DNA of 64,000 nucleotides from an uncultured Pseudomonadota bacterium (GTDB lineage Bacteria > Pseudomonadota > Alphaproteobacteria > RF32 > CAG-239), in contig CASFRM010000006.1 in the NCBI GenBank assembly GCA_949297185.1, forward strand, positions 16,374 to 80,373, given 5' to 3'. Made by a program: the position numbers and the translations under genes. Below the pieces are notes generated by a model. That model was not told where the DNA came from, made no database searches, and saw nothing but the letters and a program-made list of their open reading frames with translations. Below are positions 11,694 through 50,226 of the stretch, in pieces (position 1 is the first letter of the stretch; the number at the start of each line of letters is the position of its first letter).

Positions 11694-11700
11694 AACTGGT

Positions 11701-13966: not shown

Positions 13967-14053
13967 TGGTTCGAAAACTGCCGGAAAAAAAGGTAACAAA
14001 AAAACCTCCGTTTTACTTGGAGGCTTTTACAAAAAAATGGCGCGCCCGGCAGG
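13967..14053. repeat. Direct repeat copy 2 (native flank plus 3' end of tRNA-Arg)
   Basis: Counterpart of 13711-13796. Includes the tRNA terminator hairpin (gcctcc...ggaggt plus T-run on the minus strand). Confidence 0.9.
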
Positions 14054-14114
14054 ATTCGAACTTACAACCTTCTGATCCGTAGTCAGATGCTCTATCCAAT
14101 TGAGCTACGGGCGC
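14038..14114 (-). tRNA. tRNA-Arg (anticodon ACG)
   Basis: The reverse complement folds as a 77-nt cloverleaf, GCGCCCG-TA-GCTC...GAGC-A-TCTGA-CTACGGA-TCAGA-AGGTT-GTAAG-TTCGAAT-CCTGC-CGGGCGC-G-CCA. CCA is encoded. The T stem has one A:C mismatch. Confidence 0.93.
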
Positions 14115-30323: not shown

Positions 30324-31058
30324 TTATAGTTGACGGGCCTTTTTCAAACGATACTCAGCCAATTTAGCTTCCCGCCACGCATTAGCTCGGGCAGCGGTGT
30401 CAGCCTCAATTTTATTTTTTCCGAGATTAAGAGTTTTTACTTTATCAAGTTCTCTCGGGTTGGGTAATCTGGTATTATTTTTTTCAAGCGAAGCCTGAAC
30501 GATACCCTTATATGCTTTTGATAATTTCTGAGCATATTTTTTAGCTTTTTTCGGTAAGCTGGAGTGATATGCGGTTGCAGCTTTATTCCAGTCGTTACCT
30601 TTTTTCTTATAAAGTTTTTTTAAGAACTTTGCGCCGTACTCAACGTTTCTGTACGGATTGAAAGCCTGATCCAAATTTTCGAAAGCATCCGGATGGTAAG
30701 CCAAATTAATTTGCATACATCCGACATCAATACTTTTTACACCTCTTGCCTGCAGTTTTTTAACTGCGGCAATAGCCTCTTGTTTAGTCTCGTAATAGCG
30801 TCCTTTACCTTGAGCATTAACGGTCCACGGCCAAGCAGTGTTACGTTGCTTTTGCTGATTCCATCTACCGGATTCAACATTGGTAATAGTAGAAAGCAGG
30901 TGTTTTTTAATTTGGTATTTTTCTTCAAACTGCTGAGCCGCTACTGTGCAAACTTCTGTGTCATCAACAAATTTAGGGTATTCAGAAGCTTCCACCGGCT
31001 GAATAAACATCAGCAAGAATAACAAAAACATCAAAAATTTTGATACGAAAAGTCGCAT
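30324..31058 (-). CDS. Lytic transglycosylase (SLT domain)
   Basis: Catalytic ES motif (ITNVESGRW), plus WPWTVNAQGKG and DVGCMQINLAYH. An alternative start at 31097 is created by a 39-bp tandem duplication. Confidence 0.8.
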   Translation of the reverse strand: MRLFVSKFLMFLLFLLMFIQPVEASEYPKFVDDTEVCTVAAQQFEEKYQIKKHLLSTITNVESGRWNQQKQRNTAWPWTVNAQGKGRYYETKQEAIAAVKKLQARGVKSIDVGCMQINLAYHPDAFENLDQAFNPYRNVEYGAKFLKKLYKKKGNDWNKAATAYHSSLPKKAKKYAQKLSKAYKGIVQASLEKNNTRLPNPRELDKVKTLNLGKNKIEADTAARANAWREAKLAEYRLKKARQL

Positions 31059-31108
31059 CCCTCTGTTCCTCAAAAATTTTGATACGAAAAGTCGCATCCC
31101 TCTGTTCC
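31031..31108. repeat. Perfect 39-bp tandem duplication covering the RBS, start codon and first 9 codons of the SLT gene
   Basis: tcaaaaattttgatacgaaaagtcgcatccctctgttcc occurs at 31031-31069 and again at 31070-31108. Confidence 0.95.
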
Positions 31109-32207: not shown

Positions 32208-32333
32208 GTTATCTCTTCTCACAAACAGCTTTCAGATATGACAAGCTATCACCAAAACCTTAAATATTCGCTAATGAAGTCAAAAAAGTTCTTGCAATTA
32301 AATTTGATATATATTATCTAGTTTAGGCATCAA

Positions 32334-32381
32334 GGGTGTGTAGCTCAGGTGGTCAGTCGCGTTACGTTGACATCGTAGAGG
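32334..32381 (+). pseudogene. Partial, slightly diverged copy of the 5' 46-48 nt of tRNA-Val
   Basis: GGGTGTGTAGCTCAGGTGGTCAGTCGCGTTACGTTGACATCGTAGAGG versus the intact gene at 32584. The D-loop region differs (GGTCAGTCGCG vs GGTTAGAGCG). Homology stops in the variable loop. Confidence 0.8.
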
Positions 32382-32583
32382 CTTGAGGCAGAAAACGGCT
32401 CCGGTGGAGCGGTTTTCAACGAAAGGCGAGAGTTTGTTGGTTTATGAGCCAGCTTTAGCGCCGCGAAATAAACGCTACAAACCGAGTGACCGCAGCGAGT
32501 TAGCTTTTGACGCCCAAGCGTCAGAGCTTACGAGCCAGAACAAGCTCGCTTGCGACCGAATTATTAAGGAATTTTATCTATAT
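32382..32583 (+). other. tRNA-linked conserved noncoding element, copy B
   Basis: Homologous to 13797-13966, with the core at 32484-32540. Same order of hairpins. The tracked ORF 32383-32619 runs into the tRNA and is not conserved in copy A. Confidence 0.55.
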
Positions 32584-32660
32584 GGGTGTGTAGCTCAGGT
32601 GGTTAGAGCGTTACGTTGACATCGTAGAGGTCGCAAGTTCGAGTCTTGCCACTCCCACCA
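32584..32660 (+). tRNA. tRNA-Val (anticodon GAC)
   Basis: 77-nt cloverleaf GGGTGTG-TA-GCTC...GAGC-G-TTACG-TTGACAT-CGTAG-AGGTC-GCAAG-TTCGAGT-CTTGC-CACTCCC-A-CCA. One U:U mismatch at acceptor pair 4:69. Confidence 0.9.
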
Positions 32661-32669
32661 ATTAAATAA

Positions 32670-32698
32670 AGGCCGGAACTAAGTTTCCGGCTTTTTTG
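32670..32698 (+). terminator. Rho-independent terminator after tRNA-Val
   Basis: Stem gccggaa / ttccggc followed by TTTTTT. Confidence 0.7.
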
Positions 32699-34177: not shown

Positions 34178-34500
34178 GTCATTCTCAATGATGTCTTATT
34201 TTCATGTCATTCTCGGGCGGTGTTTTTTTATTGTCATTCTCGGGCTTGTCCCGAGAATCTCATTAAGGAGTCAAGTTTTGCGAGACCCTCGGAACGAGTC
34301 CGAGGGTGACGATAAAAAAGAAATGTCATTCTCGGGCGGTGTTTTTTTTATGTCATTCTCGGGTGGTGTTTTTTTATTGTCATTCTCGGGCTTGACCCGA
34401 GAATCTAATAAGTTTTAGGCACGGTCATTTTCAGCCTTGTCCCGAGAATCTCATAAGTTTTAAGCCCAATCATTCAAAGACCTTGACCCGAGAACCTAAT
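34178..34500. repeat. Array of short palindromic hairpin repeats upstream of the GIY-YIG gene
   Basis: Unit A is GTCATTCTCGGGCTTGTCCCGAGAATCT, unit B is GACCCTCGGAACGAGTCCGAGGGTGACGA, and half-units are GTCATTCTCGGGCGGTGTTTTTTTAT. At least 8 units are present. Confidence 0.9.
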
Positions 34501-34517
34501 AGATATAAAACAGCAAT

Positions 34518-34805
34518 ATGAAGAACATGTATGTTTACATAATGAGTAATAAGCCGAATGGTACATTATATATTGGTGTAACTAATGATTTATGTCGTCG
34601 AGTTTATGAGCATAAAAATAAACTGATAGAAGGATTTACAAAGCGATACAATCTTAATATTCTGGTCTATTATGAAGTATTTGACAGTGAAATACAGGCC
34701 ATACAACGCGAAAAGAACTTAAAACACTATACACGACAATGGAAACTTAATCTGATAAATAGTATAAATCCCGAGTGGAAAGATTTATATGATTCCATAC
34801 AATAG
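34518..34805 (+). CDS. GIY-YIG nuclease family protein (small UPF0213-type)
   Basis: 95 aa. MYVYIMSNKPNGTLYIGVTNDLCRRVYEHKN...REKNLKHYTRQWKLNLI is the classic GIY-YIG / URI-domain signature. Confidence 0.9.
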   Translation: MKNMYVYIMSNKPNGTLYIGVTNDLCRRVYEHKNKLIEGFTKRYNLNILVYYEVFDSEIQAIQREKNLKHYTRQWKLNLINSINPEWKDLYDSIQ

Positions 34806-34839
34806 GCCAAGCATTTATTGTTACTTTGGTTGTGTTTTT

Positions 34840-35244
34840 TTTATTGTTATTCTCGGGCGGTGTTTTTTTATTGTCATTCTCGGGCTTGACCCGAGAATCT
34901 AATAAGTTTTAGGCACTGTCATTCTCGGGCTTGTCCCGAGAATCCATAATGAATAGACCCTCGGAACAAGTCCGAGGGTGACGATTATGTGGTGTCCGAG
35001 TGTGATGATAAAAAACAAATGTCATTTTCAGCCTTGTCCCGAGAACCTCATAATGAATAGACCCTCGGAACAAGTCCGAGGGTGACGAGAAAAAAGAAAT
35101 GTCATTCTCGGGCTTGTCCCGAGAATCTCATTAAGGAGTCAAGTTTTGCGAGACCCTCGGAACGAGTCCGAGGGTGACGATTATGTGGTGTCCGAGGGTG
35201 ACGATAAAAAAGAAATGTCATTCTCGGGCTTGTCCCGAGAATCT
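34840..35244. repeat. Array of the same hairpin repeats downstream of the GIY-YIG gene
   Basis: At least 10 A/B-type units. The 80-bp block 35101-35180 is identical to 34233-34312. The last hairpin abuts the patatin stop codon. Confidence 0.9.
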
Positions 35245-36112
35245 AATTTTGCTCTAAAAACTTCTTGATTTTCTCAAGGTTGCTTAATGCGTCAAAACGC
35301 CCCAGCTCATACATCTGCTTGACAATATCAAGGTTACGCTCCATCTTGCCGATTTTTATTTTTTTTGACGGTCGCAAAACTAAAGTGTTACCACTCTTTT
35401 CCTCTTTGGCAATATAATCGAGCTCTTGATTATACATAATATGCCTTTGGGCAATAGCTTTGGCAAACAAAGGATATTTACGATATACCAAGTTAGCCAA
35501 CCAACCGTTGTGCGCCGGAGGTTTGCGATAACCGTCCGGTCGGGTCAAAATCACGATATTACGGTTATATCCCATATTTTGAGCGGCCTCAAGCGGGATA
35601 CTGTCGCAAATGCCGCCGTCCAATAATTTTAGCCCGCCCACTTCAACGATTTGCGAAAAAAACGGTAGAGAAGCAGAAGCTCTGAGATAATTGATATTGT
35701 CACCTCTTAATGAAGGACAATGGATATATTCGGCTTTTCCGGTTTCGATATTAGAGCAGACGGCAAAAAATTTACATTTACTGTTTTCAAAAGCATCATG
35801 GTCAAACGGGTCGAGGATATCCGGCAACTCATGATAGCAGAATTCGGTATCAACCACATTTCCGGTTTTGAGCCAATTTTTAAGGCTCATAAATCTGGGG
35901 TCGTTGCCGTATTTAAGGTTATAACGGATTGAACGACCATTTTGTTCGGCCACATAAGTACAGCCATGTATAGCTCCCGCCGACACCCCGAATACGGCAT
36001 CAGCCATGATATTATTTTCAAGCAACACATCCAATACACCGGCGGTATAGATACCGCGTTTAGCCCCGCCTTCCAAAACCAATGCCGTCGTCATAATCAA
36101 TTCATCCTTCAT
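35243..36112 (-). CDS. Patatin-like phospholipase
   Basis: Oxyanion GGAKRG, nucleophile elbow GVSAG and catalytic DGG (LLDGGICD). Confidence 0.85.
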   Translation of the reverse strand: MKDELIMTTALVLEGGAKRGIYTAGVLDVLLENNIMADAVFGVSAGAIHGCTYVAEQNGRSIRYNLKYGNDPRFMSLKNWLKTGNVVDTEFCYHELPDILDPFDHDAFENSKCKFFAVCSNIETGKAEYIHCPSLRGDNINYLRASASLPFFSQIVEVGGLKLLDGGICDSIPLEAAQNMGYNRNIVILTRPDGYRKPPAHNGWLANLVYRKYPLFAKAIAQRHIMYNQELDYIAKEEKSGNTLVLRPSKKIKIGKMERNLDIVKQMYELGRFDALSNLEKIKKFLEQN

Positions 36113-36167: not shown

Positions 36168-36773
36168 CTAGTAATATACCCATGTAATATCCGGAGTGGC
36201 TTTATTTTCACCCTCAGGATAGCATAAACCGTCTGCGGCATCCATAGATAACGGCAATTCTGAGGATTTCTTGCCTTCGTCGCCAATTATCATTCCCATC
36301 ATGCCGTCAGAACCCCAATCAGCGGTAAGCATAGACATACATGCATCAGCAGTCAAACCTTCCATTTTAATATAAAAATACCCGTCTCCTTCAGCACCAA
36401 CATCAGTACAATCACTCTCACCACAAGCACTTACCGTGACTGCTCCGCCAAAAGCCCCATTCAACTCACCGCCATCAGCATCGGCAATCATATCTGCGGA
36501 AACCAAGTTAAATTTTGCAGCGGTGGCATTATCCAGACCATTATAAGTCGGACTGGAAGCATAGGCCGTACGCACATTCATAAGGGTCATTGTTATTTGA
36601 TCTTGAGCTTTTGTAAGTTTAAATTTTGCCATAGCCTTAGAATAACCGGCAATACCACCGACCGACAAGACGCCGACAATAGCCAACACACCAAGCATTT
36701 CGACCATCGAACGACCGGATTCATTTATTTTAGCACCTGATAACATTTTTTTATACTCCATAAAATTAAGCAT
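36168..36773 (-). CDS. Type IV (IVb-like) prepilin, analog of R64 PilS
   Basis: Class III signal: leader ending in G, then RSMVEMLGVLAIVGVLSVGGIAGY with Glu at +5. Four Cys in the C-terminal globular part. The true start may be the internal ATG at 36746. Confidence 0.7.
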   Translation of the reverse strand: MLNFMEYKKMLSGAKINESGRSMVEMLGVLAIVGVLSVGGIAGYSKAMAKFKLTKAQDQITMTLMNVRTAYASSPTYNGLDNATAAKFNLVSADMIADADGGELNGAFGGAVTVSACGESDCTDVGAEGDGYFYIKMEGLTADACMSMLTADWGSDGMMGMIIGDEGKKSSELPLSMDAADGLCYPEGENKATPDITWVYY

Positions 36774-36873
36774 TTCTAATTATCTATTATACACTCATGT
36801 TTGTTTTTATACAATTAAAAACTCCATTTAGGGACATTCTATACTCAAATAACTTAAAATAAAGTAAACAATC

Positions 36874-37464
36874 CTATTGTTCAAACCTAAAAATTACTTT
36901 ATTTACGTCGTCACAGACATCAGCAACATTATTTCGTTTTGCCGGCAAAGCAAACTCCTCGTTACTCCAGCTAAAAATCTGCTCAGATTTATTATTCTTG
37001 ATTACTAATTCGCTGACCGATAACCAAAAATCGTGTTCAAATTGATGTGAAGCCAAGGCTATACATTGTTTTTTATTTAAGTCGTTATAAGCAATTACAA
37101 AACTCCTCATTGACGGCATAACTGCCATACCGCTTTCATCAGCTCCAATCTCCACATCATTAGCAAAATATCCTTTTAACTTGCCGTTTTCTACCCGCAT
37201 ATCGGTCGGATAAAGCTTCTGATTTATCACTTCTTTTGTGCTTAAACCCCAAAAGTCCGGTCGCATCTTATAAGCCCCGCAGATGTTTTTTGCCAAAATT
37301 GTAACTTGATTACCGGCCTCAAAAGCGCCCACATTTTGCTGTCCGCGAACTATTGCTAATAAAGACAAGGCCAAGGCAAACACAATCACTGCCGAAATTA
37401 TGGCAACCTTCCATTGGCAAAACATTACCCACAAAATTGTAAAAAAGGCTTTTATCTTTCCCAT
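36874..37464 (-). CDS. Hypothetical bitopic membrane protein in the pilus operon (minor-pilin-like or PilM-like?)
   Basis: A single N-terminal TM (VAIISAVIVFALALSLLAIV) and a ~150-aa periplasmic domain with 3 Cys. Lacks a G/xxxxE prepilin site. Confidence 0.5.
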   Translation of the reverse strand: MGKIKAFFTILWVMFCQWKVAIISAVIVFALALSLLAIVRGQQNVGAFEAGNQVTILAKNICGAYKMRPDFWGLSTKEVINQKLYPTDMRVENGKLKGYFANDVEIGADESGMAVMPSMRSFVIAYNDLNKKQCIALASHQFEHDFWLSVSELVIKNNKSEQIFSWSNEEFALPAKRNNVADVCDDVNKVIFRFEQ

Positions 37465-37473
37465 AGTTTCACC

Positions 37474-38610
37474 CTAAGTTCCCATATTGCTTGTAATTTG
37501 GTCTTGCATGTCAAAGGTTCCCATAACCGCCCAAGCAATAACACCACCGATAGCCAACAATGCCACCATGTTAAGAATTCCGGCTTTTTCTTCAATGGTA
37601 TAAACCGATTCTTCCAGCCACTCGTTAGCCAGATTGTCCAAAGCTTCTTCAAAGTTATCTAATTCGGAGTATATTTTCAAATCGTCAATAATTTCCTTAT
37701 CCGGAAACACCAAGCCTGTTTTTGCCAAAGCTTGCCCCAAGTTATCACCGTTATTGACATAAACCAAAGTCTTATCAATTCGTTCTTTTAGATATTTGGT
37801 TGCATCACGCCGTAACGCACGCAATGCCGTAGAAACCGGAGTTCCCCCCTTAACCAAAGCGGCCATAGCCAACAACCAACTAATTCCGACGAAGGTTTTA
37901 TATAATGACCATGGCGGAATGTTGTCAAATACGGCTCTTATTTTTCCGGTCCATATACTGATGGTAAAATATATGACAGCCATTAATATAGGCAAAGAAG
38001 AAAAAGCGATTAACCAATTGTCTTTAATCCATGCCGACAAGTCAACCAAGTCTCTGGCAAGACCTGTCCATTTAACATTCGGAGCAGCATCAATCATTGG
38101 CGGCACCATGTACACACCAATAGCATAAATGATCAAAATTGCCATCATCATCAAAAAGCTCGGATAAGAAATTGCTCCGATGATAGGTCTAATCATTTTG
38201 GTCGAGCCCTCGGTAACTTTAATCAGGTTTAACAAAGCACCTTCCAAGTCTGATACATCACCTACCGAAAGCATCAATCTTTCTCTGTCCGGAGCCCAAC
38301 CTTTTAAAGCATCGGAAAAAGTATTACCGTTATTTAAGCTTCTTCCCCAAGCAGCAATGGCAATGGCCAATGGTTCCCCGGGGTTTTTTCCTCCGTTTGA
38401 TGCTCCATCGTGTAACATATCCAGAGCATCCATCAATGAAAAGCGGTTACGCATCAAAGAGGCAATTTTACGATAGAGCTTCAATCTGGTCTTACTTGCA
38501 AACATAATCATTAAGCGGGCGTACATTTCCTCGGCTTTGTTAAGATTACGCATCGCTTTTTGTAAAGATTTTGAGTTTTTTTTCTTACTTACCAGTTCTT
38601 CATCAACCAT
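37474..38610 (-). CDS. Type II/IV secretion platform protein (GspF/PilC family; analog of R64 PilR)
   Basis: 378 aa. Two T2SSF-like repeats and three TM segments. Operon position is directly after the ATPase. Confidence 0.85.
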   Translation of the reverse strand: MVDEELVSKKKNSKSLQKAMRNLNKAEEMYARLMIMFASKTRLKLYRKIASLMRNRFSLMDALDMLHDGASNGGKNPGEPLAIAIAAWGRSLNNGNTFSDALKGWAPDRERLMLSVGDVSDLEGALLNLIKVTEGSTKMIRPIIGAISYPSFLMMMAILIIYAIGVYMVPPMIDAAPNVKWTGLARDLVDLSAWIKDNWLIAFSSLPILMAVIYFTISIWTGKIRAVFDNIPPWSLYKTFVGISWLLAMAALVKGGTPVSTALRALRRDATKYLKERIDKTLVYVNNGDNLGQALAKTGLVFPDKEIIDDLKIYSELDNFEEALDNLANEWLEESVYTIEEKAGILNMVALLAIGGVIAWAVMGTFDMQDQITSNMGT

Positions 38611-38625
38611 TTTATCGCCCTCAAA

Positions 38626-40299
38626 CTAGTATACCGGACGCTGATCAAGCAATCCGCACCATCTTTCAACTTCGTCCAAATCAATAAGTCCTTTGAGCAT
38701 TCGCTCCATGGCAGCTTCTTTTAATGTTCTGCCGTTCAAATCCGATGTCCAATAATCGATTGCACGTCGTGTTTCACCCTTAATCATCAATTCCAAGAAT
38801 GTTGCATCCGGCAAAATAATCTCGGGCACGCACATACGCCCCTTAATACCAGTGCCGTTACAGAACTTACATCCCGGACCACGGACATAAGTATTTTCCA
38901 CACCAAAGTCACCCAAGGCCGTACGCAAACGACTAAATGACGGATCATTTTGTCTTTCTTTAACCGACATCCTGCAATGCGGGCAAAGCTTTCTGAATAA
39001 GCGTTGAGAAATCAACCCCTTAATCAATTCTGGGTCAAGCAGCTTAAAAGTTTCAACCCCCATATCTCTAAAACGGTTAATAATTGCCGGAGCAGAGTTT
39101 GCGTGTAGGGTAGACCACATTCCGTGACCTGACAAGGCACCTTGGAAAGTAAGCTGTGCTGCCGCTAAGGCTCTGATCTCGCCCACCATAATAACATCAG
39201 GGTCCGAACGCAAAGCTGCCGACAAAGCTTTGGTAAATTGTTCGGCCTTTTCTTCCTCGGTATTGGCGTTTGTAACCGGCATTTGTCTTGCGCCCGGAAT
39301 TGGGTACTCAGGAGGATCTTCCACCGTCAACAAATTAAGCTCATAATTTTTTTCTTGCAAAAGCTTAATCATATTTCTTTGCAAAGTGGTGGATTTGCCC
39401 GAACCGGTGGGGCCGGCAACGATGCTCATTCCGACCGGAACGGCGCGTAAACGATAAAATAAATCTTCTTCAAATTGACCAAAGCCCAGAGCCGCCAAAT
39501 CACCTGAACCATCAGGATTATCATCGGCATAAAGTAAACGCATAACCAAATATTGCGAGCCGAAAGCAATTGGGTTAAATTGCAAACGGATAGCCAATAC
39601 ATTATGTGGCAGCATCAATTTGCCCTTAGAACCTCTCAGCGGAGTAGAACCTAATTTCTGTGCTCCTTGGAATTCGTTTTGCGCATAGTTTGAGTCAGAA
39701 ATATCTGCCGAAGCAAAAGCTGCGCGGACAAATGATTCGCCCCATTCTTTATTATATTCCATCTCAACTTGCATCATACCGTTAACTCTAAACATAATTA
39801 CGGTATTATCAGCGACCACGACATGAATATCCGACACCTTTTTGCTTGCAGCTCTTGCCACCACATTAACAAAGTCTTTTTGCATTTGTAGTTGGTCAAG
39901 CTCTGCATCAGCCGAAACTTCTTCGGCAGCTTGAGCACGCTCGCCTATTGCGTAAATCGCATTTAATTCATTTTGCGAAACATATGTTGGTTTCGCAATA
40001 GCAACTTTCTTCTTACGAGCCAAAACCTCAAAGCTTAAAACTCGTCCGTCAAATTTATGGGCTTCTACAACCAAAAAACGGCCATCAGAGAATAAAGCCA
40101 AAAGTCTTCTGGTATCATCATTTACGGCCAGCGGTGAACCGGGTAGGGTAAGGAGCTTGTTATTATTAGAAAAATAAACCTCGGTTATTGAGCCTTTCTC
40201 AGCCTCCGATGCTTTATCAGCGTCTTCAGACACAGGAGCAGCCGAGGCTGGAGCCTCGGCTTGAGTTAAGTTTTTTTCCTGCTCTTCAGAATTTTCCAT
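38626..40299 (-). CDS. Type II/IV secretion ATPase (GspE/PilB family; analog of R64 PilQ)
   Basis: Walker A GPTGSGKST, Asp/His boxes, Walker B DPDVIMVGEIR, and a tetracysteine motif CPHC...CKFC. Confidence 0.92.
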   Translation of the reverse strand: MENSEEQEKNLTQAEAPASAAPVSEDADKASEAEKGSITEVYFSNNNKLLTLPGSPLAVNDDTRRLLALFSDGRFLVVEAHKFDGRVLSFEVLARKKKVAIAKPTYVSQNELNAIYAIGERAQAAEEVSADAELDQLQMQKDFVNVVARAASKKVSDIHVVVADNTVIMFRVNGMMQVEMEYNKEWGESFVRAAFASADISDSNYAQNEFQGAQKLGSTPLRGSKGKLMLPHNVLAIRLQFNPIAFGSQYLVMRLLYADDNPDGSGDLAALGFGQFEEDLFYRLRAVPVGMSIVAGPTGSGKSTTLQRNMIKLLQEKNYELNLLTVEDPPEYPIPGARQMPVTNANTEEEKAEQFTKALSAALRSDPDVIMVGEIRALAAAQLTFQGALSGHGMWSTLHANSAPAIINRFRDMGVETFKLLDPELIKGLISQRLFRKLCPHCRMSVKERQNDPSFSRLRTALGDFGVENTYVRGPGCKFCNGTGIKGRMCVPEIILPDATFLELMIKGETRRAIDYWTSDLNGRTLKEAAMERMLKGLIDLDEVERWCGLLDQRPVY

Positions 40300-40326
40300 T
40301 TTTCACCTTAATTAATCAAATCAAAG

Positions 40327-41664
40327 TTATAAAGGAGTAGATATTAAACCAGATCTGGAATTATTGTTGTTCACACTGGAAGCATTACTGCCCTGTGCTT
40401 GAGCAGCTTGCATTCTGGCAGCAACTTCAGGATCAAGCTGGAAGCCGGATGTTTCCATTGGAACTATGCCGCCGGCAGAAAAATAGAGGTAACTTTTACT
40501 GCTTCCTTTACTTGCTGCAACATAAGTTGTGGTAATTTCATCTACAATATGTCCTGATTGCAGAGCCGTTCCTTTTTTAACATAGAAAGAGACACCGCCT
40601 GTATTCAGTAATTTTGCAACCAATTCTCCACCTTGTCCTCTAATTTCGGTAACGGCATATAGTTGCGATAAATCAGTTTCCACCGGCTCATTGGCGGATT
40701 TTTCTGCGGAACTATCTTCGTCACTGTTGGGGGTGGCACTACCATTTGCAAAAGGATTATTTCTCATTTGCTCATTCTCTCTTTCCAGAGTTTCTGTTCT
40801 CTGGCGCAGAATGTCAATTTGGGCTCTCAGGTTCTCAGCATCTTTTTCATATTGATCAACCTTAGCCATAAAAGATTTTTTAGCATCGGTAGCTGCGGTA
40901 TTCAATGCCGTAACCTTTGTTTTCATGTCTTCCAAAAGTGCTTTTTTAGAATTTCTCAAGTCCTCAATTTGCTTATAAAATTTGGCATTATTTTCAATCC
41001 AGAGTTGGTTTTCTTCAAGCATTTTGTTTTTGTATGCTCCCAATACTCTTTCCTGACGCAAGGTCTCAAATTTTATATCCAAATCGCGTAACTTTTGTTG
41101 TTCAACCAAAACCTTCTGCTCTTGTTCTTTTTCAAAAGCCAAATTTTTAAGCTTTAGTTGCTCGATTCTCTCTTTTTCTTGCTGCAAAGCTTGGCGTCGC
41201 TGATTTTTTACGGCTTCAATCTCATTTTTAAGCTTTTCTCTCTTTAATTCCAAGTTCAAAAGAGCTGTTCTTTTTTCAATATCAGACATCTGTGAAAACA
41301 AATCAGTGCCCTCGGCAGTGGCGTTTTCCTGCTCTGCAAGCAGAGTTAACTCCTCAGCTCCGCCGTTGTTATTATCTTCCTCCACAATGTCAATTTCGCT
41401 GACCAAAACATCATTTGCCAGCGGTAAAGGAGCATTTGCAGACTGTTTTGGAGCATTGATAATAGGCAACTCTGGAGAAGTCTGCCCTTCTTCGGTTATA
41501 TTTGGAACTTCTTGTGCCGGCAATTCCATTTCTGTATCCAAGCCATCGTCAAACATAGCTTCTTCTGACAAAGAAACTAAACCCTGAGCCTTTACTTGTC
41601 CAGCCGCAAGCGCCAAAGAACAAAAGATTGTCGTCAATAATAAATTTAAATTCTTACAAGACAT
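40327..41664 (-). CDS. PilP-like pilus biogenesis protein with a long coiled-coil insertion
   Basis: Start reset to the ATG at 41664 (AAGGAG RBS 7 nt upstream). Signal peptide and a ~250-aa E/K/Q-rich coiled coil. The C-terminal beta domain (LYAVTEIRGQGGELVAKLLNTGGVSFYVKKGTALQSGHIVDEI) resembles PilP/GspC HR domains. Confidence 0.5.
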   Translation of the reverse strand: MSCKNLNLLLTTIFCSLALAAGQVKAQGLVSLSEEAMFDDGLDTEMELPAQEVPNITEEGQTSPELPIINAPKQSANAPLPLANDVLVSEIDIVEEDNNNGGAEELTLLAEQENATAEGTDLFSQMSDIEKRTALLNLELKREKLKNEIEAVKNQRRQALQQEKERIEQLKLKNLAFEKEQEQKVLVEQQKLRDLDIKFETLRQERVLGAYKNKMLEENQLWIENNAKFYKQIEDLRNSKKALLEDMKTKVTALNTAATDAKKSFMAKVDQYEKDAENLRAQIDILRQRTETLERENEQMRNNPFANGSATPNSDEDSSAEKSANEPVETDLSQLYAVTEIRGQGGELVAKLLNTGGVSFYVKKGTALQSGHIVDEITTTYVAASKGSSKSYLYFSAGGIVPMETSGFQLDPEVAARMQAAQAQGSNASSVNNNNSRSGLISTPL

Positions 41665-42988
41665 ATATAGCTCCTTCATAATGCCAAACATTATTGTCTG
41701 GTGAATAGGTTATCAGTCTAAACTCAAGACCTGAATATTTTGTTAACAATTTTGCCCACACAGTCGGATCATGTGGCGAACTAAAAGAAAACTTTAGCGC
41801 TCTAAACACTGTAGGCTGCTGAGTTGGAACTCTCGCCGCTGGCCCTTTACCCTTGGGGGCAGCTTGCGCGGGTGCACTAGTCTTAATTGTTTCTTCCGAC
41901 AAAGAAATCTGCAACCCCAATGACTGAAATTGATTGTTTATTTTATTACGCAAGTCGACCATATTATATTCCGGAGGGGATAATAATTGCGGTGCCGGTT
42001 CCAAGTTTATAGAGGCAGTAATATTGTTTCCGGTATTATCAAACTGGTATCCCGCAAACTTGATTCCCGATTTTTCTAAAGCGTCACTCATCCAATCCAT
42101 AATGCCGAACTCTCGTCTCCACGATGTCGCTACAAAGTTTTTTGAGCAGCTTATCAAACCAATATCCCATCCGGGAGGCATAATCTGCGCCAGCTGATTA
42201 ATTCCCTCAAAGCACCTATCCATAACCTCTGCTGGATTATTAATTTTTTCCCATGGTTTAGGAACTTCTTTAACCTCAACCGGTTGAATAACTTTCGGTC
42301 TAACCGGGACGGATACTGGTCTTTTAACCGGTGTAAAAAATATTTTATCAACCAAAGTTGAAACCAACCATAATCCAACGACGGCCGAAACCACAACAAC
42401 GGCAATCAGTTTAGAACCTCGTAGGCCTTTTATCTTCTGTAACTTGGCTTTGGCACCACGGGAAAGTAAATCGCCCAAGTCTGCATCTTCGGTGTCGTCA
42501 AGTCCCCACTCTGCCGGAGCAATTTTCTTACCCCAATCAGGCACTGCCAACATTGATAAGAACTGATTTTTTGCTTCTTCTTCATTCAAAAACAGCATAT
42601 CGCCGTCAGATAAGATGATATCATTACGAACGCATGTATACCACCAACCTTCTTGAGTTTTAAAAACCGCAACGAACGAAGATACATCGGATAAAGCTGT
42701 AACCAAAGCCACAATTGCTGATGATTGCCCTTTTTTAAAGCCTTCATGCGATACACAAATACCAAACTGAGGAGCTTTACCTCCTTTTATACAGAACAGA
42801 TCAGCACCTTCTAAGATACTATTTGAAGCATCTTCAACTTCCTGCAAATAATCCTTGGCATTTTGTAATGGCTGCCAGAACAAACTTGTAGCGTAACTAA
42901 TGCCATCGACATTAATTGATGTGCCCCAAGTCTTACGGGAGTTTCCTCCCTCTAAATCGTCATCTAACAGCTTTGCTTCATCAAGCAC
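41654..42988 (-). CDS. PilO-like (R64-type pilin accessory) protein
   Basis: 444 aa with a cytoplasmic N-domain, one TM (LIAVVVVSAVVGLWLV) and a periplasmic C-domain. Size and position (between secretin and PilP-like) match R64 PilO. The call rests on synteny only. Confidence 0.4.
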   Translation of the reverse strand: MLDEAKLLDDDLEGGNSRKTWGTSINVDGISYATSLFWQPLQNAKDYLQEVEDASNSILEGADLFCIKGGKAPQFGICVSHEGFKKGQSSAIVALVTALSDVSSFVAVFKTQEGWWYTCVRNDIILSDGDMLFLNEEEAKNQFLSMLAVPDWGKKIAPAEWGLDDTEDADLGDLLSRGAKAKLQKIKGLRGSKLIAVVVVSAVVGLWLVSTLVDKIFFTPVKRPVSVPVRPKVIQPVEVKEVPKPWEKINNPAEVMDRCFEGINQLAQIMPPGWDIGLISCSKNFVATSWRREFGIMDWMSDALEKSGIKFAGYQFDNTGNNITASINLEPAPQLLSPPEYNMVDLRNKINNQFQSLGLQISLSEETIKTSAPAQAAPKGKGPAARVPTQQPTVFRALKFSFSSPHDPTVWAKLLTKYSGLEFRLITYSPDNNVWHYEGAIYVL

Positions 42989-43010
42989 TTTTTTATCTCC
43001 TGCAAAGAAG

Positions 43011-44621
43011 CTAGTTCATAGTCATTCTGGTTTCCGGTGACAACGGAGTTTCCAAAACCACCGGTGTCAAAACAATAACCAAGATATTACGCTCTCTTGC
43101 TGCATTGGCATTTCCACCTAACAGAGAAGATTCTGCCGAGCCGGTGCCGGTTTTTGTAGTTTCGTCGGAAGTTTTTTCATATCCGGTCAAAATCAACGAT
43201 TCACCTGAACTCAGGGCAACTTCTTGAGTAAAGGCACGAGATTCAACTTTCGGGTTTTGAATATATTGGTTCTCATCTTCATTTCCGAAGCTTACCTTTT
43301 CAAGAGAAATCAAATCTGATAATGTCATATTAAACATAACCAACATTCTTCCGTGCTCCAAAATTCTAGGTAACACGTCCAAAGTGAAACCGGTTTCGAT
43401 TTCCTCTGTTGTAACAGAGATATCATAATTATCTCCATCGGTGCCGTTATTTGTCTTTGTCATCTCAGAAATGTAATTTTGTTTCTGCGTTACTTGAATC
43501 GGCGCTGGTTTATTATTCAAAGTAGTTACCGTACCGCTGGTGATCAGAGTGGTTCTGTTTTTCTTAGATATTGCCTGCATAATAGCATCGGCAGACCAAT
43601 TATCTTTTAATATACCCCAAGATATCGCATTAGACAAATCATCGGATGCCGCGATTCCTTGTGTTCCGGTAATTCCAACCGAAGTAACACCATCATCGAA
43701 TGTTGCCTTCAAATCAAGACCGTAAGAATCAGAATCACTTATTGTAACCTGCATAATTTTAACCGAAATTGCAACTTGTCTTGCCAAACGTGCATTTTGT
43801 TCATTAACATATTTAGCAACCAGCTTTATATCATTTGGTGTAGCAGTTAATGTAATTGTGCCGTCTGACGGTGAAACAGTCAATTTTGCATCAGAACCGA
43901 TCATTGAAGAGATGGTTTTTTCAAACTGTGTCCACATTTCAACATCAATTGAAGATGTTAAACTGATAGACGAAGAACCTCCGCTTCCCGAAGCAGAACC
44001 ACCGATATTAACATTCATATTCGGCTTGGTCGGCAAAGAGTACATAACAAAAGTTTTGGTAATAAAACGATAGAAATAAATATCTTTATTGTCATATTTC
44101 CACCAAACACCAAAGCGCGAAGATACTTCATCCAAGAAACCGCTCAAAGGTCCTTGATACGAAACCATCATGGTATCAGGAGAAGCCCATTCACCTCCGG
44201 TCGGCAATAAAGACGAAGGCTTGTTGCTTTCACCTTTTGCTCTAACATCTGCTTCCAAATCATAAGAATATCTTATTCCAAGTCCGGTAGTACGATTGAG
44301 CATATCACCGATTTCATACAAGCTTATAGGTCTGTTAGAAACCAAAGTTATACCGTCATTTTTCTCCAAATAAGAAGGCAACGGCTCACCCTCATACTCA
44401 ATTTTACTGGTATTGCCCAACCAAATATCGTCATTAACTTTAACCAAATCTTGATTGGCAATTTTAGTTGGAGCTTTAGCTTCTTCGCGTAGTGTCGAAG
44501 CAGCTTCAATATTTTTCTCAACCACATCGTCCATCGTAGTAGAAACAGAGCATGAAGCAACAACGGTGATGGCGCAGATACTGGCACCTATCTTTTTCAA
44601 ATTAGTTATAAGCATTTTCAT
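43011..44621 (-). CDS. Secretin lipoprotein (analog of R64 PilN / BfpB-type)
   Basis: Lipobox VVASC. C-terminal secretin domain (TLITSGTVTTLNNKPAPIQV..., GFTLDVLPRI..., ERNILVIVLTPVV). The start is uncertain: TTG 44636, ATG 44621 or ATG 44615. Confidence 0.85.
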   Translation of the reverse strand: MKMLITNLKKIGASICAITVVASCSVSTTMDDVVEKNIEAASTLREEAKAPTKIANQDLVKVNDDIWLGNTSKIEYEGEPLPSYLEKNDGITLVSNRPISLYEIGDMLNRTTGLGIRYSYDLEADVRAKGESNKPSSLLPTGGEWASPDTMMVSYQGPLSGFLDEVSSRFGVWWKYDNKDIYFYRFITKTFVMYSLPTKPNMNVNIGGSASGSGGSSSISLTSSIDVEMWTQFEKTISSMIGSDAKLTVSPSDGTITLTATPNDIKLVAKYVNEQNARLARQVAISVKIMQVTISDSDSYGLDLKATFDDGVTSVGITGTQGIAASDDLSNAISWGILKDNWSADAIMQAISKKNRTTLITSGTVTTLNNKPAPIQVTQKQNYISEMTKTNNGTDGDNYDISVTTEEIETGFTLDVLPRILEHGRMLVMFNMTLSDLISLEKVSFGNEDENQYIQNPKVESRAFTQEVALSSGESLILTGYEKTSDETTKTGTGSAESSLLGGNANAARERNILVIVLTPVVLETPLSPETRMTMN

Positions 44622-45324
44622 CCTCCCTTGTTTCAACTACTAAGACACGGTTTCCTTTATAAAAAGTAGCCATGGGCGCAGGTTTTGCTCTGGCAAAATT
44701 TCTGATTAATGCCGAAGACACATCAGCAAATCTTCCTCTAAACATAGCTCCTGCAGCTAAAGTATAATTTCTGTTAGAATTCCATACCAATCTCCAACCG
44801 GATCTTTCGCACCAGTCAGAAAGTAGACCTTTCAAAGTGCTGCCTTCTTCCGCAAGCCAATCCTCGACTGCGTCGTCCCCGCTGTTATACTCAGCGTCGC
44901 TGGCATTTGCGGTTTCAGCTTCGGAAATAGCCTCGTTAACAGCTTCTTCGTAATCTGTAACTTCTTCATCTATTGTCGGAGGAATTGCAGCAGCCATATT
45001 GCTCCCGACACCGTTAGACAAGATGTACTGATCTGTAACACTTCTTTCGCCGAATTCACGATAATCAGCATCAGTCATTCTATAATCAACAAAACGGTCG
45101 TTAGCATTGTTCTGCGCGGTGGGCGTGATGGTGGGTGCCGGTTGATTTCCTTCTTGGGTGTAAATTACCACTTCCTCTACCGGCGCTTCCTCATCATTCC
45201 ATGGTAAGCTCCAAAGAGTATATGTATTGCTACATCCGCTAAGAGCAATAACAGACAATACCGCCAGAAGGCAATTCTTTTTTAAGTACATCTTTGCAAT
45301 CCTTTGAATAGATTTTCCCATCAT
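44602..45324 (-). CDS. TcpQ/PilL-like pilus lipoprotein
   Basis: Lipobox LSGC. The C-terminal STLKGLLSDWCERSGWRLVWNSNRNYTLAAGAMFRGRFADVSSALIRNF matches the TcpQ (toxin-coregulated pilus protein Q) / R64 PilL domain pattern. Confidence 0.7.
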   Translation of the reverse strand: MMGKSIQRIAKMYLKKNCLLAVLSVIALSGCSNTYTLWSLPWNDEEAPVEEVVIYTQEGNQPAPTITPTAQNNANDRFVDYRMTDADYREFGERSVTDQYILSNGVGSNMAAAIPPTIDEEVTDYEEAVNEAISEAETANASDAEYNSGDDAVEDWLAEEGSTLKGLLSDWCERSGWRLVWNSNRNYTLAAGAMFRGRFADVSSALIRNFARAKPAPMATFYKGNRVLVVETREDENAYN

Positions 45325-45378
45325 ATTTTCCTTATCATACTATTGAAAAATAAATAATCAAGCACCGTCAAACAGTTA

Positions 45379-47046
45379 TTACCATTGTATATGCTGTGGC
45401 GAGTTTATTGTATTTATTTTTCCGTTTGTTCCTCCTTTGTTTTTGCTTTTTATTGTTCGCAAAACAAAACTATTTGGCTCTCGCGAGGTAAACACTGTGT
45501 TTATTTTCGCGTAATCAAGCCCCTTATTGGTTAAAATGTTATACAGCAGGTTAAGCCTCTTCTGTTGTAGGTTTGTTGAGCTGGTGCCGTCAATGCGTAT
45601 CTCCAATGCTGCATCCGGTGTCTCCGCAATTTTTCCGGCAAACGCCTGTACCCAACGCAAGGTTTGTCCTGAAATTTCGGCTCGATTTGGCTGAAACGAA
45701 AGTCTAATTTCTGTCGGCATTATCGATAGCCTTTTTGTGACTTTGCCTTTTTGAGAAATAGATCTTTTGATTTTTGCTTTAGCCAAGGCGCGTTCTTTTG
45801 CTTGGTTTATCTCCTCTTCGGAGCTTTGCTTGCCAAATACGGAGTTTAGAGCCCGTAAAATTGTAGGCTTTTCTTCTTTCGCCGGTTCTGCCTTTTTTTG
45901 TTTATCCTCGACCAAGGGCTGTTCTTTTGTCTTTTCAGCATCCGAAGGGGGTGTTGTGAGTTCCTCTATGTCTTCATCTTCAATAGCGGACAATAGGGCG
46001 GTATTTCTTTTTTCTGAATGTTCTTTGGCTTCTTTGATTTTTTCTTGGTTTTTTATTTTTGCTTCAATAATTTTCTCTTTCTTGGCATCTTCCGAAGTCG
46101 CAGGATATGCAAGCGTGGGGGTCAGATTTTCATCTTTTATTATTTCTTCTGGTATTGGTATAATAAGATTTTTTACTGTCTCGGCTGCAACTTTTACTCC
46201 GCCTTCTTTTATTTCTGGAGACAGGTGTTTTTTGATTTCGTCATTCGTTGCCTTTGAGGATAACCTGTTTTTTGATTTTCCTCCTATTTGAGCAACTTCC
46301 CAAGGTGAATCTTTTAACGACTTCCATTCTTGTTGCTCAACAGCTTCGTCTTTTTCAGTAGATGATTTTTTTAATTCTTTTTCCATGCTTTCTATAGGAA
46401 TGTTTTTTTCATTCAAAGCCACATGGTTAAGCTTCTGGGGGTCACCGATTTTAATCTGTTTGTCGGCCAAAAGTATTTTCTGCTGTTTATCATCCTGCAA
46501 AGGTATTGAAATGTCATCATATTTTACAACATTTTTCTTAGGTAAAAGTTGTTCTTCTTGTTCGCTCCCGTTATAAACCTTTGCTGCAACTATTTTTACA
46601 TCTGCTTTCTTTTGAGGCGCGGTTTGTGGTGTGTATACAGCCTCGGTCTCAATCTTAGGACTTTCCAAAGGTTTATCTGGCGAGTACAGCACATCAGCTA
46701 ATATAACCTTGTTATTATCCTCAATTTTTTCTTCTATCGGATCAATGCTTCGTTCGATTTCCAGCGGAAAATCAAAATTGTCTAATGTATCTGCCAATAT
46801 CACCTCATGGGATTTGTCGTCTAGAGGTTGTTTGGTGACTTCGGGCAGCACATTAAGAGCAATTTTTTTTACGGGATAAGGCGAAGCGGAAGTGTCTTTT
46901 AAGAATAGCACAATGCTTTTATCTTTAATGTCAAGGGGTTGAATTTCAGTGGGTTTTTCATACCAAAAAGCCCTGTTTGCAGCCATTATAGCAAACAGAG
47001 ATACCGAAAAACTGTAAGCAAAAGCTTTAAGAACTGTTTTTGGCAT
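45379..47046 (-). CDS. Hypothetical first gene of the pilus operon (555 aa; K/E-rich, possible degenerate OmpA/MotB-like C-terminus)
   Basis: Start set at ATG 47046 (AGAGGGG RBS). N-terminal TM or signal sequence, a long K/E/P-rich region with VILAD-x-L repeats, and a C-terminal ~110 aa (EIRIDGTSSTNLQQKRLNLLYNILTNKGLDYAKI) weakly OmpA_C-like. Confidence 0.6.
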   Translation of the reverse strand: MPKTVLKAFAYSFSVSLFAIMAANRAFWYEKPTEIQPLDIKDKSIVLFLKDTSASPYPVKKIALNVLPEVTKQPLDDKSHEVILADTLDNFDFPLEIERSIDPIEEKIEDNNKVILADVLYSPDKPLESPKIETEAVYTPQTAPQKKADVKIVAAKVYNGSEQEEQLLPKKNVVKYDDISIPLQDDKQQKILLADKQIKIGDPQKLNHVALNEKNIPIESMEKELKKSSTEKDEAVEQQEWKSLKDSPWEVAQIGGKSKNRLSSKATNDEIKKHLSPEIKEGGVKVAAETVKNLIIPIPEEIIKDENLTPTLAYPATSEDAKKEKIIEAKIKNQEKIKEAKEHSEKRNTALLSAIEDEDIEELTTPPSDAEKTKEQPLVEDKQKKAEPAKEEKPTILRALNSVFGKQSSEEEINQAKERALAKAKIKRSISQKGKVTKRLSIMPTEIRLSFQPNRAEISGQTLRWVQAFAGKIAETPDAALEIRIDGTSSTNLQQKRLNLLYNILTNKGLDYAKINTVFTSREPNSFVLRTIKSKNKGGTNGKINTINSPQHIQW

Positions 47047-47247
47047 AAGACAAACCCCTCTAAAGTCTAGATAAATCAAAATGCGACTCTTGGCAATAGC
47101 GGCATAAAAAAATCCACAAATTTTTAGAAAAAAATAAAAAATTTTGTTGAAATAAAAAAATCAAAAAATTGTAACACTTTTTAAGTAATTTATATGTTAT
47201 AATTTCTTCAATAGGATAAATTTGTCCCATAAGCTTGGCGAAAAACG

Positions 47248-49329: not shown

Positions 49330-50226
49330 TCAAAGTTTAAGTTTGGCTAAGGGATGCTTGCTTTTTACTTCATCAATCAATTTTTCGGTTATTATATGAG
49401 TATAAATTTCGGTTGTGGTGATATCTTTATGTCCCAGCATCATCTGCACCGAACGTAAATCCACATCATTATTTAATAAATGTGTAGCAAAAGAATGTCT
49501 CAGCACATGGGGGGATACTTTTTCCGGTGAAATTCCTGCTAAGACAGCCAGATTCTTAATTGCCTTAAAGAAGGCATCACGGGTCAGGTGCCCCTCCTTA
49601 GAGTTAGAAGGAAACAAGAAAGGTTTTTCTGCTCCTTTTAGCAGTTTTTTTCTAATCTCTAAATATTGCAATATTTCTTTCAGTGCGACATCCGCGACCG
49701 GAATAAGCCTTTCTTTGGCACCTTTGCCTTTGACCAAAATTTGCTTTTTATCAAAGTTAATACAATTAAGCGGCAGAGATACCAGTTCAGACACCCTTAG
49801 TCCGCAGGCATACATTAACTTAAGCATGGTAGCGGTTCGTTTGTGAGTGTTATCAGGATTATGTTCGGCCGCCTCAATTAATAGATTTATTTCATCCCTT
49901 GTTAAAAATTTAGGCAGGCTACGGCTTTTTTTAGGTGCCGAAATATTTAGCATCGGGTTTTTTGCAATTTCATTTTCGGACATCAAAAATTTGCAAAAAT
50001 CATTTAATGCCGATATTTTTCTGGCAATAGAACGAGCGGCATAACCTTGTGACTTAAGAAAGGCGATAAATTCTTTAATATCTTTCTCGTTGATATCGTG
50101 ATAATCCTTACTGCAGGATTCAAAGAACTGTTCCAAATCACGCTCATAGGAGCGTAAAGTATTTTCGGCCAAACCATGTTCGGCAGCCATCATATCCAAA
50201 AAATCGGCAAGAATATCGCGATTCAT
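49330..50226 (-). CDS. xerD: Site-specific tyrosine recombinase XerD
   Basis: 298 aa. SAM-like N-domain and catalytic R...HxxR...Y (LRHSFATHLL, MLGHKDITTTEIYTHI). Divergent from aroK, as in many alphaproteobacteria. Confidence 0.85.
   Translation of the reverse strand: MNRDILADFLDMMAAEHGLAENTLRSYERDLEQFFESCSKDYHDINEKDIKEFIAFLKSQGYAARSIARKISALNDFCKFLMSENEIAKNPMLNISAPKKSRSLPKFLTRDEINLLIEAAEHNPDNTHKRTATMLKLMYACGLRVSELVSLPLNCINFDKKQILVKGKGAKERLIPVADVALKEILQYLEIRKKLLKGAEKPFLFPSNSKEGHLTRDAFFKAIKNLAVLAGISPEKVSPHVLRHSFATHLLNNDVDLRSVQMMLGHKDITTTEIYTHIITEKLIDEVKSKHPLAKLKL

Follow-up and report, generated by a model that had tools for sequence, protein, structure and literature searches.

The window analyzed here is a 64,000-nucleotide (nt) stretch of contig CASFRM010000006.1 from an uncultured alphaproteobacterium. 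ARAGORN and Rfam find two tRNA genes in it, tRNA-Arg(ACG) and tRNA-Val(GAC), and each is accompanied by a copy of the same short element, which we call E (Table 1). At the Val locus, the intact gene is preceded by an outer partial copy of its own 5' portion, by E, and by a spacer of 44 nt. The partial copy and its counterpart in the intact gene (32334-32381 and 32584-32630) are identical in 45 of 48 columns of a global alignment; the two substitutions and the single indel all lie in the D-loop. The same partial copy occurs in L008 and L056 and a shortened version in L015, where L001-L092 are labels for the related stretches and contigs compared with the window. Local alignment of the sequence after E to both strands of the tRNA identified the motif cttgcgacc as the reverse complement of tRNA-Val nt 45-53. 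The acceptor stem of tRNA-Val does contain the U4:U69 mismatch described in an initial annotation of this DNA, though nothing can be concluded from it.

The Arg locus is built in a comparable way. A direct repeat of 87/88 nt (13711-13796 and 13967-14053; five differences and one indel in the alignment; repeat families D6 and D14) spans the 3' 16 nt of tRNA-Arg, the terminator, and a spacer. Bracketing by duplicated tRNA sequence, which the initial annotation correctly described for tRNA-Val, is not a peculiarity of that locus. After E, the antisense T-loop sequence continues and is followed by an inverted target copy that contains the 3-4 nt absent at the E junction. The T-stem of tRNA-Arg has an A52·C62 mismatch, which recurs in L013. 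Close matches to the Arg copy of E, at the same tRNA type, are found in L063 and L057.

The two copies in the window are clearly related. Their 57-nt cores (13904-13960 and 32484-32540) agree at 49 of 57 bases and share the 26-mer GACCGCAGCGAGTTAGCTTTTGACGC, which occurs twice in the window against 0.00 occurrences expected by chance. The enclosed hairpin loop differs in all four bases (tgtt vs ccaa), and its six adjoining stem pairs are identical. On the 5' side of the core, the copies are alike in architecture and not in sequence: a first hairpin and an AGGCG box are followed in each by a long hairpin that keeps its GTTT...AAAC base and has a different interior. The left junction reads AGG/CT at both loci, as had been noted. 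A covariance model built in this analysis from E copies (R1) scores the Val core (32420-32539) at 110.7 bits and the Arg core (13839-13959) at 84.9 bits; the fold z-scores of the two copies are -2.9 and -6.4, respectively.

Table 1. Position, strand, and basis of assignment of features in the window.
Feature	Position	Strand	Basis
Outer duplicated-target copy, Arg locus: inverted T-arm piece, A-runs, terminator hairpin, antisense tRNA-Arg nt 61-77	13711-13796	+	
Element E, Arg copy; left end CTACAAG; antisense to tRNA-Arg	13797-13959	+	
tGAACCt (antisense T-loop continuation), then TGGTTCGAAAACTGCCGG = inverted target copy, sense nt 52-69	13960-13984	+	
Inner copy of duplicated segment plus intact tRNA-Arg(ACG)	13967-14114	-	
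Intact tRNA-Arg(ACG)	14038-14114	-	ARAGORN, Rfam
Native tRNA-Val promoter-like site (TTGCAA, 17 nt, TATCTA)	32292-32320	+	alignment to empty site
Outer partial tRNA-Val(GAC) copy, nt 1-46; ends at junction AGG/CT	32334-32381	+	alignment
Element E, Val copy; 158 nt, non-coding	32382-32539	+	covariance model R1, fold, covariation
E Val copy, left end CTTGAGG	from 32382	+	
E Val copy, hairpin 1 with A-run and T-run	32391-32417	+	
E Val copy, AGGCG box	32424-32428	+	
E Val copy, hairpin 2	32431-32483	+	
E Val copy, box 1 GACCGCAGCGAGTTAGC	32488-32504	+	
E Val copy, hairpin 3 apex; loop CCAA at 32514-32517	32505-32525	+	
E Val copy, box 2 AGCTTACGAGCCAGA	32525-32539	+	
Target continuation caagctcg (~tRNA nt 50-57), then inverted target copy cttgcgacc	32541-32557	+	
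AT-rich spacer with ATTATTA motif, common to Val and Pro loci	32558-32583	+	
Intact tRNA-Val(GAC)	32584-32660	+	ARAGORN; Rfam tRNA 63.9 bits
Terminator hairpin 3' of tRNA-Val	32672-32691	not assigned	consensus terminator scan
Bundlin/PilS-like pilin	36168-36773	-	domain scan
Type II secretion system (T2SS) protein F	37474-38610	-	domain scan
TcpQ	44602-45324	-	domain scan

E is about 160 nt long and has four parts: a variable left end, hairpin 1, an AGGCG box with hairpin 2, and the apex of hairpin 3 between two conserved boxes. The left end consists of 7 variable nt, most often CTGGAGG. Hairpin 1, about 9-13 nt from this end, lies between an A-run and a T-run, looks like a bidirectional terminator, and folds without strand preference; some copies have the tRNA's own terminator in its place. 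Hairpin 2 is composed of three stacked helices with internal loops, and hairpin 3 lies about 8-14 nt from the right end. Box 1 (GACCGCAGCGAGTTAGC) and box 2 (GCTTAYGAGCCAGA) are invariant across the family. Part of this invariance was forced by the search pattern, but the GACCG and AGA parts of the boxes, which lay outside the pattern, are still almost invariant.

RNAalifold on a plain MAFFT alignment missed hairpins 1 and 2 owing to misalignment, and the structure was therefore defined from single-sequence folds and then tested by pair counts. In an alignment of 41 sequences, 18 of the 25 proposed pairs change on both sides, with 123 covarying cells against 41.9 ± 5.4 in shuffles; 86.6% of the cells are paired, compared to at most 42% with slid partners. 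A model-based alignment of 76 distinct sequences gave 234 cells against 68 ± 6 in shuffles and 88.6% paired cells against at most 43%. Compensatory change is strong in two hairpins; in hairpin 2, for instance, it occurs in place, from G-C to A-T, between the window and L015. For the apex of hairpin 3, 59 distinct versions of 8-28 nt were counted, and these fold as hairpins far better than shuffles (p = 7e-10); this generalizes the loop-only divergence first seen between the two window copies. The conserved structure suspected from those copies is borne out by these compensatory changes. The + strand is the structured strand of E, since it folds better in 39 of 43 copies, since one conserved pair of the model-based alignment alternates between G-C (42 sequences) and G-U (32 sequences), and since G·A mismatches (55) exceed C·T mismatches (13). 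Consensus scans revealed no consistent promoter for E.

A pattern scan built on the two conserved boxes, applied to a viral contig collection and a collection of species-representative genomes, matched 2 viral-collection contigs and 63 species-representative stretches with a total of 73 copies in 46 assemblies. R1 finds 84 matches across the window and the related stretches searched; 15 extra loci from a relaxed motif scan of viral contigs are chance matches according to this model. Nearly all hosts are Alphaproteobacteria of the gut, uncultured and sampled from humans, primates, and roe deer; "Azospirillum sp. 51_20" is among them. Four E-bearing contigs (L012, L034, L036, and L047) are filed in Methanobacteriaceae, Lachnospiraceae, and Clostridium bins; their E copies match alphaproteobacterial ones, and the contigs are probably mis-binned.

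Almost everywhere in this family, E is found next to a tRNA gene. In 66 of 78 copies, a tRNA gene lies within 600 nt, and most of the others are found at the edge of the stored stretch. Sixteen anticodon types are represented: Pro(TGG, GGG), Gly(CCC), Val(TAC, GAC), Lys(CTT, TTT), Arg(CCG, ACG, CCT), Met, His, Ala(GGC), Thr(TGT, CGT), and Ser(CGA). The same tRNA can carry E in more than one way: at Pro(TGG), E is upstream in L029 and L051 and downstream in L002 and L092, and at Arg(ACG), two arrangements occur among the genomes.

Three arrangements can be distinguished. In the commonest, (a), an outer partial copy downstream of the tRNA carries E in its T-loop, in antisense orientation to the tRNA. 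In (b), which includes the Val locus of the window, E is on the tRNA strand, upstream of the gene, and follows a copy of tRNA nt 1-46 (Val) or 1-38 (Pro). In (c), E lies downstream on the same strand and is followed by tRNA nt 41-77 (Pro) or the equivalent; L092 is of this kind and has the same terminator after both copies. One formula covers all three: an intact tRNA, then an outer second copy of the segment that extends outward from the junction, interrupted by E. In (a) and (c), this segment extends past the tRNA end to include the terminator; in (b), it reaches back to tRNA position 1. Three junction sites are seen: the T-loop (where E is usually antisense to the tRNA), the anticodon loop, and the border of variable loop and T-stem. 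E takes the place of 2-4 nt of target there, and the duplicated target amounts to 46-88 nt.

Between the inner and outer copies lies an inverted copy of the uninterrupted target, 9-20 nt in length, and E is 4-12 nt away from the turning point at which the duplication is joined. The inverted copy holds the 2-4 target nt that were lost at the E junction; therefore, it was copied from a target free of E. This anatomy is constant at Val, Pro, Arg, Lys, His, Ala, Thr, and Ser loci, and the Pro(GGG) and Pro(TGG) loci have perfect inverted copies of 10-13 nt, arranged as at the Val locus. Neither the inverted copy nor the outward direction of the duplicated segment, which is always the same, was part of the initial annotation. 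The left junction reads GG/CT... and the right junction ...GAGCCAGA/(N)GAAC or CAAG, with no identical crossover core. Tandem arrays also occur. L009 has three units in full length, 232 nt each. Several arrays consist of two units, a complete one on the tRNA side and a far one truncated at the left (5') end of E, which suggests that new units are added at the tRNA side.

E is not the only module with this habit. An 80-nt module, F (for example, L006 5957-6036; also in L007, L011, L013, and L023), starts with CTACCAG (CTACCAGCGAAAGGC), contains an AAGGC box and a GCAGCG motif near its end, and ends in ...GCAGCGCAATGTA. F is located in the T-loop of outer partial tRNA copies, either alone or directly after E, with an inverted-copy arrangement like that of E. 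A scan of viral contigs found no F, no Rfam family matches it, and its hammerhead-like sequence CUGAUGAG has no Rfam support. At L069 560-980, 3' of tRNA-Val(GAC), a third kind of module (~620-720) lies between tRNA fragments and is followed by a copy of E whose box is a variant (GAGTTACAATTGCG...) and whose position coincides exactly with the fold-back point. At L066 120-240, tRNA-Val(GAC) and its terminator are followed by an antisense T-arm fragment, ctcgaacctgcga, and then by AGGAGCAAAAGGATTTTCTCCTT, which together may be a remnant of the left end of another module.

Sites without E show what such a locus looks like unoccupied. A search of metagenome contigs with the neighboring MurI protein returned the FGase/tRNA-Val(GAC)/murI locus in L070 (MurI 74% identical) and L076, each with a single tRNA and with neither E, nor a partial copy, nor an inverted piece. 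The stretch 32243-32310 of the window aligns to the promoter region of the single tRNA-Val in L070 (~85% over 68 nt). The promoter-like sequence recognized earlier upstream of the partial copy is thus the native tRNA promoter. In contrast, the sequence between E and the intact tRNA-Val has no alignment to that region. Hence, either the lineage of the window, L008, L015, L056, and L066 acquired about 250 bp, or the others lost them without trace. The native promoter now reads into the partial tRNA-Val copy and E. The AT-rich spacer next to the intact gene may be a replacement promoter, as seven same-strand loci with upstream E suggest, and TTGCGA in the inverted copy may serve as a -35 box. Among 12 E-free tRNAs with full flanks, one has a nearby partial copy, and this copy carries module F. 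None of the 12 has a partial copy with an inverted joint that lacks any module; therefore, within the DNA examined, such copies do not occur without a module.

We looked for known families and for an enzyme that might act on E. In the window, only the two tRNAs reach the Rfam gathering score, and nothing overlaps E at an E-value of 10 or below. In six related loci, Rfam 15 has no match that overlaps E or F, including intron domains, ribozymes, transfer-messenger RNA (tmRNA), HEARO, and IS605-associated RNAs. The initial annotation had likewise named no described family. A permuted tmRNA was rejected: ARAGORN finds no tmRNA, and tmRNA_permuted scores 16.7 bits (gathering score 47) on the tRNA itself. 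Hairpin 3 as a group II intron domain V was rejected as well, given the wrong bulge side, the lack of a GNRA loop, and the lack of an Rfam match. We found no description in the searchable literature of the invariant boxes or of tRNA-targeting miniature elements like E, and the plasmid collection contains no match to E. The single match in the phage collection, MT837050 (L092), is filed as "Bacteriophage sp." and looks like a bacterial chromosome (RadC, tRNA-Pro) with the same tRNA-Pro/E locus. No open reading frame (ORF) lies inside or adjoins E, and the search for larger autonomous relatives turned up only housekeeping-like ORFs, and no transposase, upstream of 13 truncated copies. E also lacks the features of a classical miniature inverted-repeat transposable element: its ends have no more than CTGG/CCAG in common and form no terminal inverted repeats, and its flanks contain no short target duplication.

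How could such an arrangement arise? We favor, tentatively and at somewhat less than even likelihood, the reading that E is non-autonomous, is active as single-stranded DNA, and inserts into the loops of tRNA genes, where only events that leave a duplicated target and an intact tRNA survive or arise. The body of E comprises the terminator-like hairpin and a core of two long irregular hairpins between the invariant boxes. E would move as a single strand with the help of a trans-acting enzyme, perhaps a rolling-circle enzyme of the HUH type. In favor of this reading are the size of the family, its tRNA linkage, the covariation, the single structured strand, the constant anatomy, the empty sites, the varied arrangements at one and the same tRNA, the polar arrays, and the lack of ORFs beside truncated copies. 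The right end of E moreover borders GAAC or CAAG, the complements of the IS91-family target tetranucleotides GTTC and CTTG (PMC13181058), at T-loop, Pro, Val(GAC), and Thr(TGT) sites. The duplication would arise at the replication fork during or after insertion, and a strand or template switch would have left the inverted target copy at the joint. Hits in tRNA genes are presumably harmful, which would explain why E is seen only in the spare outer partial copies. The intact tRNA would be kept or regenerated beside E, so that repeated events could build polar tandem arrays. The small non-autonomous tRNA-targeting element proposed in the initial annotation is thus supported in part, by the family, its 16 anticodon types, the absence of any ORF, the hairpins preserved through compensatory change, and a related contig without E.

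Fork template switching at short inverted repeats is known to give inverted joints (PMC4689423). The loci of E resemble tandem inversion duplications and the products of origin-dependent inverted-repeat amplification (ODIRA) in that direct copies are joined via a short inverted segment, as would be left after partial loss of an inverted copy (PMC4689423). They differ in that an inserted element is always found 4-12 nt from the joint, a pattern repeated at many tRNA loci independent of one another. Moreover, the center of the fold-back does not coincide with the center of the natural T-arm palindrome.

Several observations weigh against this account of a mobile single strand. Neither the window (40 ORFs compared to Pfam) nor the surroundings of any copy yielded a transposase, a reverse transcriptase, or a dedicated recombinase. 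Strict-pattern copies are few per assembly, mostly 1-3. Copies at the same tRNA look orthologous across genomes, and their helices are kept by compensatory change in place, which would fit a function at the level of the host as well. The left end varies among CTGG, CTTG, CTCG, CTAC, and others, and 2-4 nt of target are lost at the junction; we know of no HUH transposition with target loss or a variable left end of this kind. The tetranucleotides GAAC and CAAG are absent at the right end at Gly(CCC), Thr(CGT), His (L060-L062), Met, and Ser sites, that is, at 5 of about 9 site types. Single-strand elements that target the lagging strand often show an orientation bias, and GC skew in the E(+) orientation, a noisy proxy for the replication strand, is positive at 27 of 58 loci and so reveals no bias. 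Finally, the duplication with its inverted joint enters the account by inference only. A possible further lead comes from the single-strand origins of rolling-circle plasmids, structured elements of similar size that are specific to one strand and have a conserved TAGCG(T/A) motif: many copies of box 1 include TAGCGA.

Among described elements, E is best filed with non-autonomous hairpin elements, as a real element that no known family matches and that has an unusual target and footprint. Like the repetitive extragenic palindromic (REP) sequences and REPINs that depend on RAYT and the palindrome-associated transposable elements (PATEs) of IS200/IS605, it is short, non-coding, based on hairpins, functional on one strand, and subject to compensatory change. 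It also resembles them in long persistence at a locus and in presumed dependence on an enzyme encoded elsewhere, and it has subterminal hairpins at both ends on one strand, as IS200/IS605 PATEs and REPINs do. E is four to five times longer than a REP sequence. Unlike the elements of this group, it has two invariant boxes of 14-17 nt, occurs at tRNA genes only, is low-copy, is invariably accompanied by a long target duplication with an inverted joint, and shows no GC-skew bias. No Y1 transposase was seen in the window or in the E-bearing stretches.

A different explanation, which we regard as unlikely but which deserves the most attention after the single-strand element, is that E encodes, on its (+) strand, a structured non-coding RNA (ncRNA) that serves the cell. 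Helices formed by the tRNA fragments and the inverted copy would then flank this RNA as processing signals, for instance for RNase III or RNase P, and E would lie beside tRNA genes to share promoters, terminators, and processing enzymes. E has covarying helices on one strand, as a generic structured ncRNA does, and the G-U pairs, the tandem G·A on the same strand, and the approximately 35 invariant nt are typical of RNA-protein complexes. The compensatory changes between copies at the same locus of different genomes, the native tRNA promoter that reads straight into the partial tRNA and E(+) at the Val locus of the window, and an inverted copy that can pair with both flanks of E, looping E out of a long helix, all agree with an RNA. 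Nevertheless, in the commonest arrangement, E(+) is antisense and located behind two terminator-like hairpins with no consistent promoter, and on the structured strand the terminator-like hairpin 1 lies upstream of the core. No Rfam family is matched, and the differences in presence and absence, the truncated copies, and the tandem arrays resemble the dynamics of an element. The variant of this idea in the initial annotation, a tRNA-leader ncRNA, would suit no arrangement but the less common one in which E precedes the gene on the tRNA strand.

E could also be a miniature derivative of an IS91-like rolling-circle (HUH, Y2) transposon, with an origin at its right end next to GTTC/CTTG, a terminator at its left end, and read-through that carries tRNA and terminator along. 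Members of the IS91 family insert at the target tetranucleotides 5'-CTTG or 5'-GTTC next to oriIS, make no short target duplication, form single-strand circles, mobilize adjacent DNA by one-ended transposition, and carry flanking DNA along when termination fails; IS91 and IS801 have two subterminal palindromes at oriIS and one at terIS (PMC13181058). E resembles these and ISCR elements in that its right end mostly lies by the complement of GTTC/CTTG, its ends are asymmetric, with two hairpins near the right end and one near the left on a single structured strand, terminal inverted repeats are lacking, and flanking DNA travels along. GAAC or CAAG occurs within 0-2 nt of the right end at T-loop, Pro, Val(GAC, in the window), and Thr(TGT) sites; GAAC is the antisense of G53-T-T-C56 of the T-loop, and CAAG belongs to the anticodon stem of Pro, the T-stem of Val(GAC), and the T-loop of Thr(TGT). 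The T-loop GTTC is universal in tRNAs, however, and all T-loop sites accordingly count as one observation. The tetranucleotide is missing at several sites (the five site types listed above), the one at the left end is unlike the target motif on the same strand, a few target nt (2-4) are lost and 46-88 nt duplicated, unlike the simple insertion of IS91-family members, and the far end is variable. E has no transposase gene; no Y2 transposase was found among the DNA searched (the window and the E-bearing stretches), and no full-length element with the right end of E occurs in the 46 assemblies. To our knowledge, IS91 elements neither target tRNA genes nor make fold-back duplications. We consider this derivation improbable.

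The bridge (seek) RNA of IS110 elements invites comparison: it too is a non-coding, structured module of RNA size (150-180 nt), and a CT dinucleotide marks the left junction in both cases. In contrast, E has no neighboring DEDD recombinase, no CT at the right junction, and long duplications. It also has no internal target match: 7-mer matches between E and its own tRNA occur only in the flank and none lies inside E, on which grounds an internal guide of this type was rejected.

Genomic islands at tRNA genes and cis-mobilizable elements (CIMEs) share with E the tRNA gene as a site, partial tRNA repeats that flank the insert, the preservation of an intact tRNA, and arrays at the tRNA. E differs from them by its 16 tRNA types, three positions in the cloverleaf, both orientations, the absence of a crossover core and an integrase, and a body that is a covarying single-strand structure. 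In L001 and L002, a prophage (DUF2924, large serine recombinase) begins directly after the outer partial tRNA-Pro copy. L092 has the same tRNA-Pro/E locus without a prophage, and therefore the phage arrived later and the spare copy is a harmless attachment site. Thus, although direct repeats of tRNA segments flank E, the serine-recombinase prophage lies directly after one such repeat, and the junctions fall in the anticodon loop and T-loop, reportedly the classic crossover places of tyrosine integrases in tRNA genes (Williams 2002), we find it very hard to see E as the leftover attachment (att) region of integrase islands or prophages, a cis-mobilizable mini-element flanked by att repeats, because 16 tRNA types are too many for one site-specific integrase, the two junctions of E share no core sequence, the phage came later, integrase arm sites lack hairpin covariation on one strand, and no integrase lies beside any copy, the sole tyrosine recombinase of the window (49330-50226) having the domain make-up of XerC/XerD and no link to E elsewhere.

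The surroundings of the two loci contain some further features that we record here. Positions 34196-35250 of the window are rich in palindromic repeat units (GTCATTCTCGGGCTTGTCCCGAGAATC and AGACCCTCGGAAC.AGTCCGAGGGTGACGA), one of which has an inverted copy at 11663-11696. The repeats surround a GIY-YIG ORF of 95 aa (34518-34805), and similar repeats are present in L008 and L062. This gene and its repeats were considered as part of the E system in view of their position near tRNA-Val and rejected, as they have no link to E at other loci. A perfect tandem duplication with a 39-nt unit, TCAAAAATTTTGATACGAAAAGTCGCATCCCTCTGTTCC, covers 31031-31108, at the 5' end of an SLT-domain ORF (30324-31097) and just upstream. 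A run of minus-strand ORFs extends from 36168 to 47079, and three of those scanned belong to pilus or secretion families (Table 1). An ORF of 1424 aa (55144-59418) contains diverged internal repeats of 45 nt (57614, 58214, 58397, and 59273).

Large islands and phages classically integrate at tRNA genes. For a 160-nt structured element that occupies many of these genes, in several loops and in either orientation, we found no earlier description. E, F, and at least one further module might form an undescribed class specific to tRNA genes, which inserts by templated strand switching and regenerates the intact tRNA, or else a new widespread RNA that uses tRNA fragments as processing handles; we regard this as unlikely. 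In such a class, the driving enzyme may be one not yet linked to mobile DNA, and the fold-back joint may be left by the chemistry of insertion. If the fold-back duplication belongs to insertion, it would show how an element hits an essential gene and yet leaves a working copy behind. If E is an RNA, it would represent a new conserved family in common uncultured bacteria of the human and animal gut. For annotation, the E family would account for partial tRNA copies, tandem arrays, and safe secondary attachment sites that are used by prophages.

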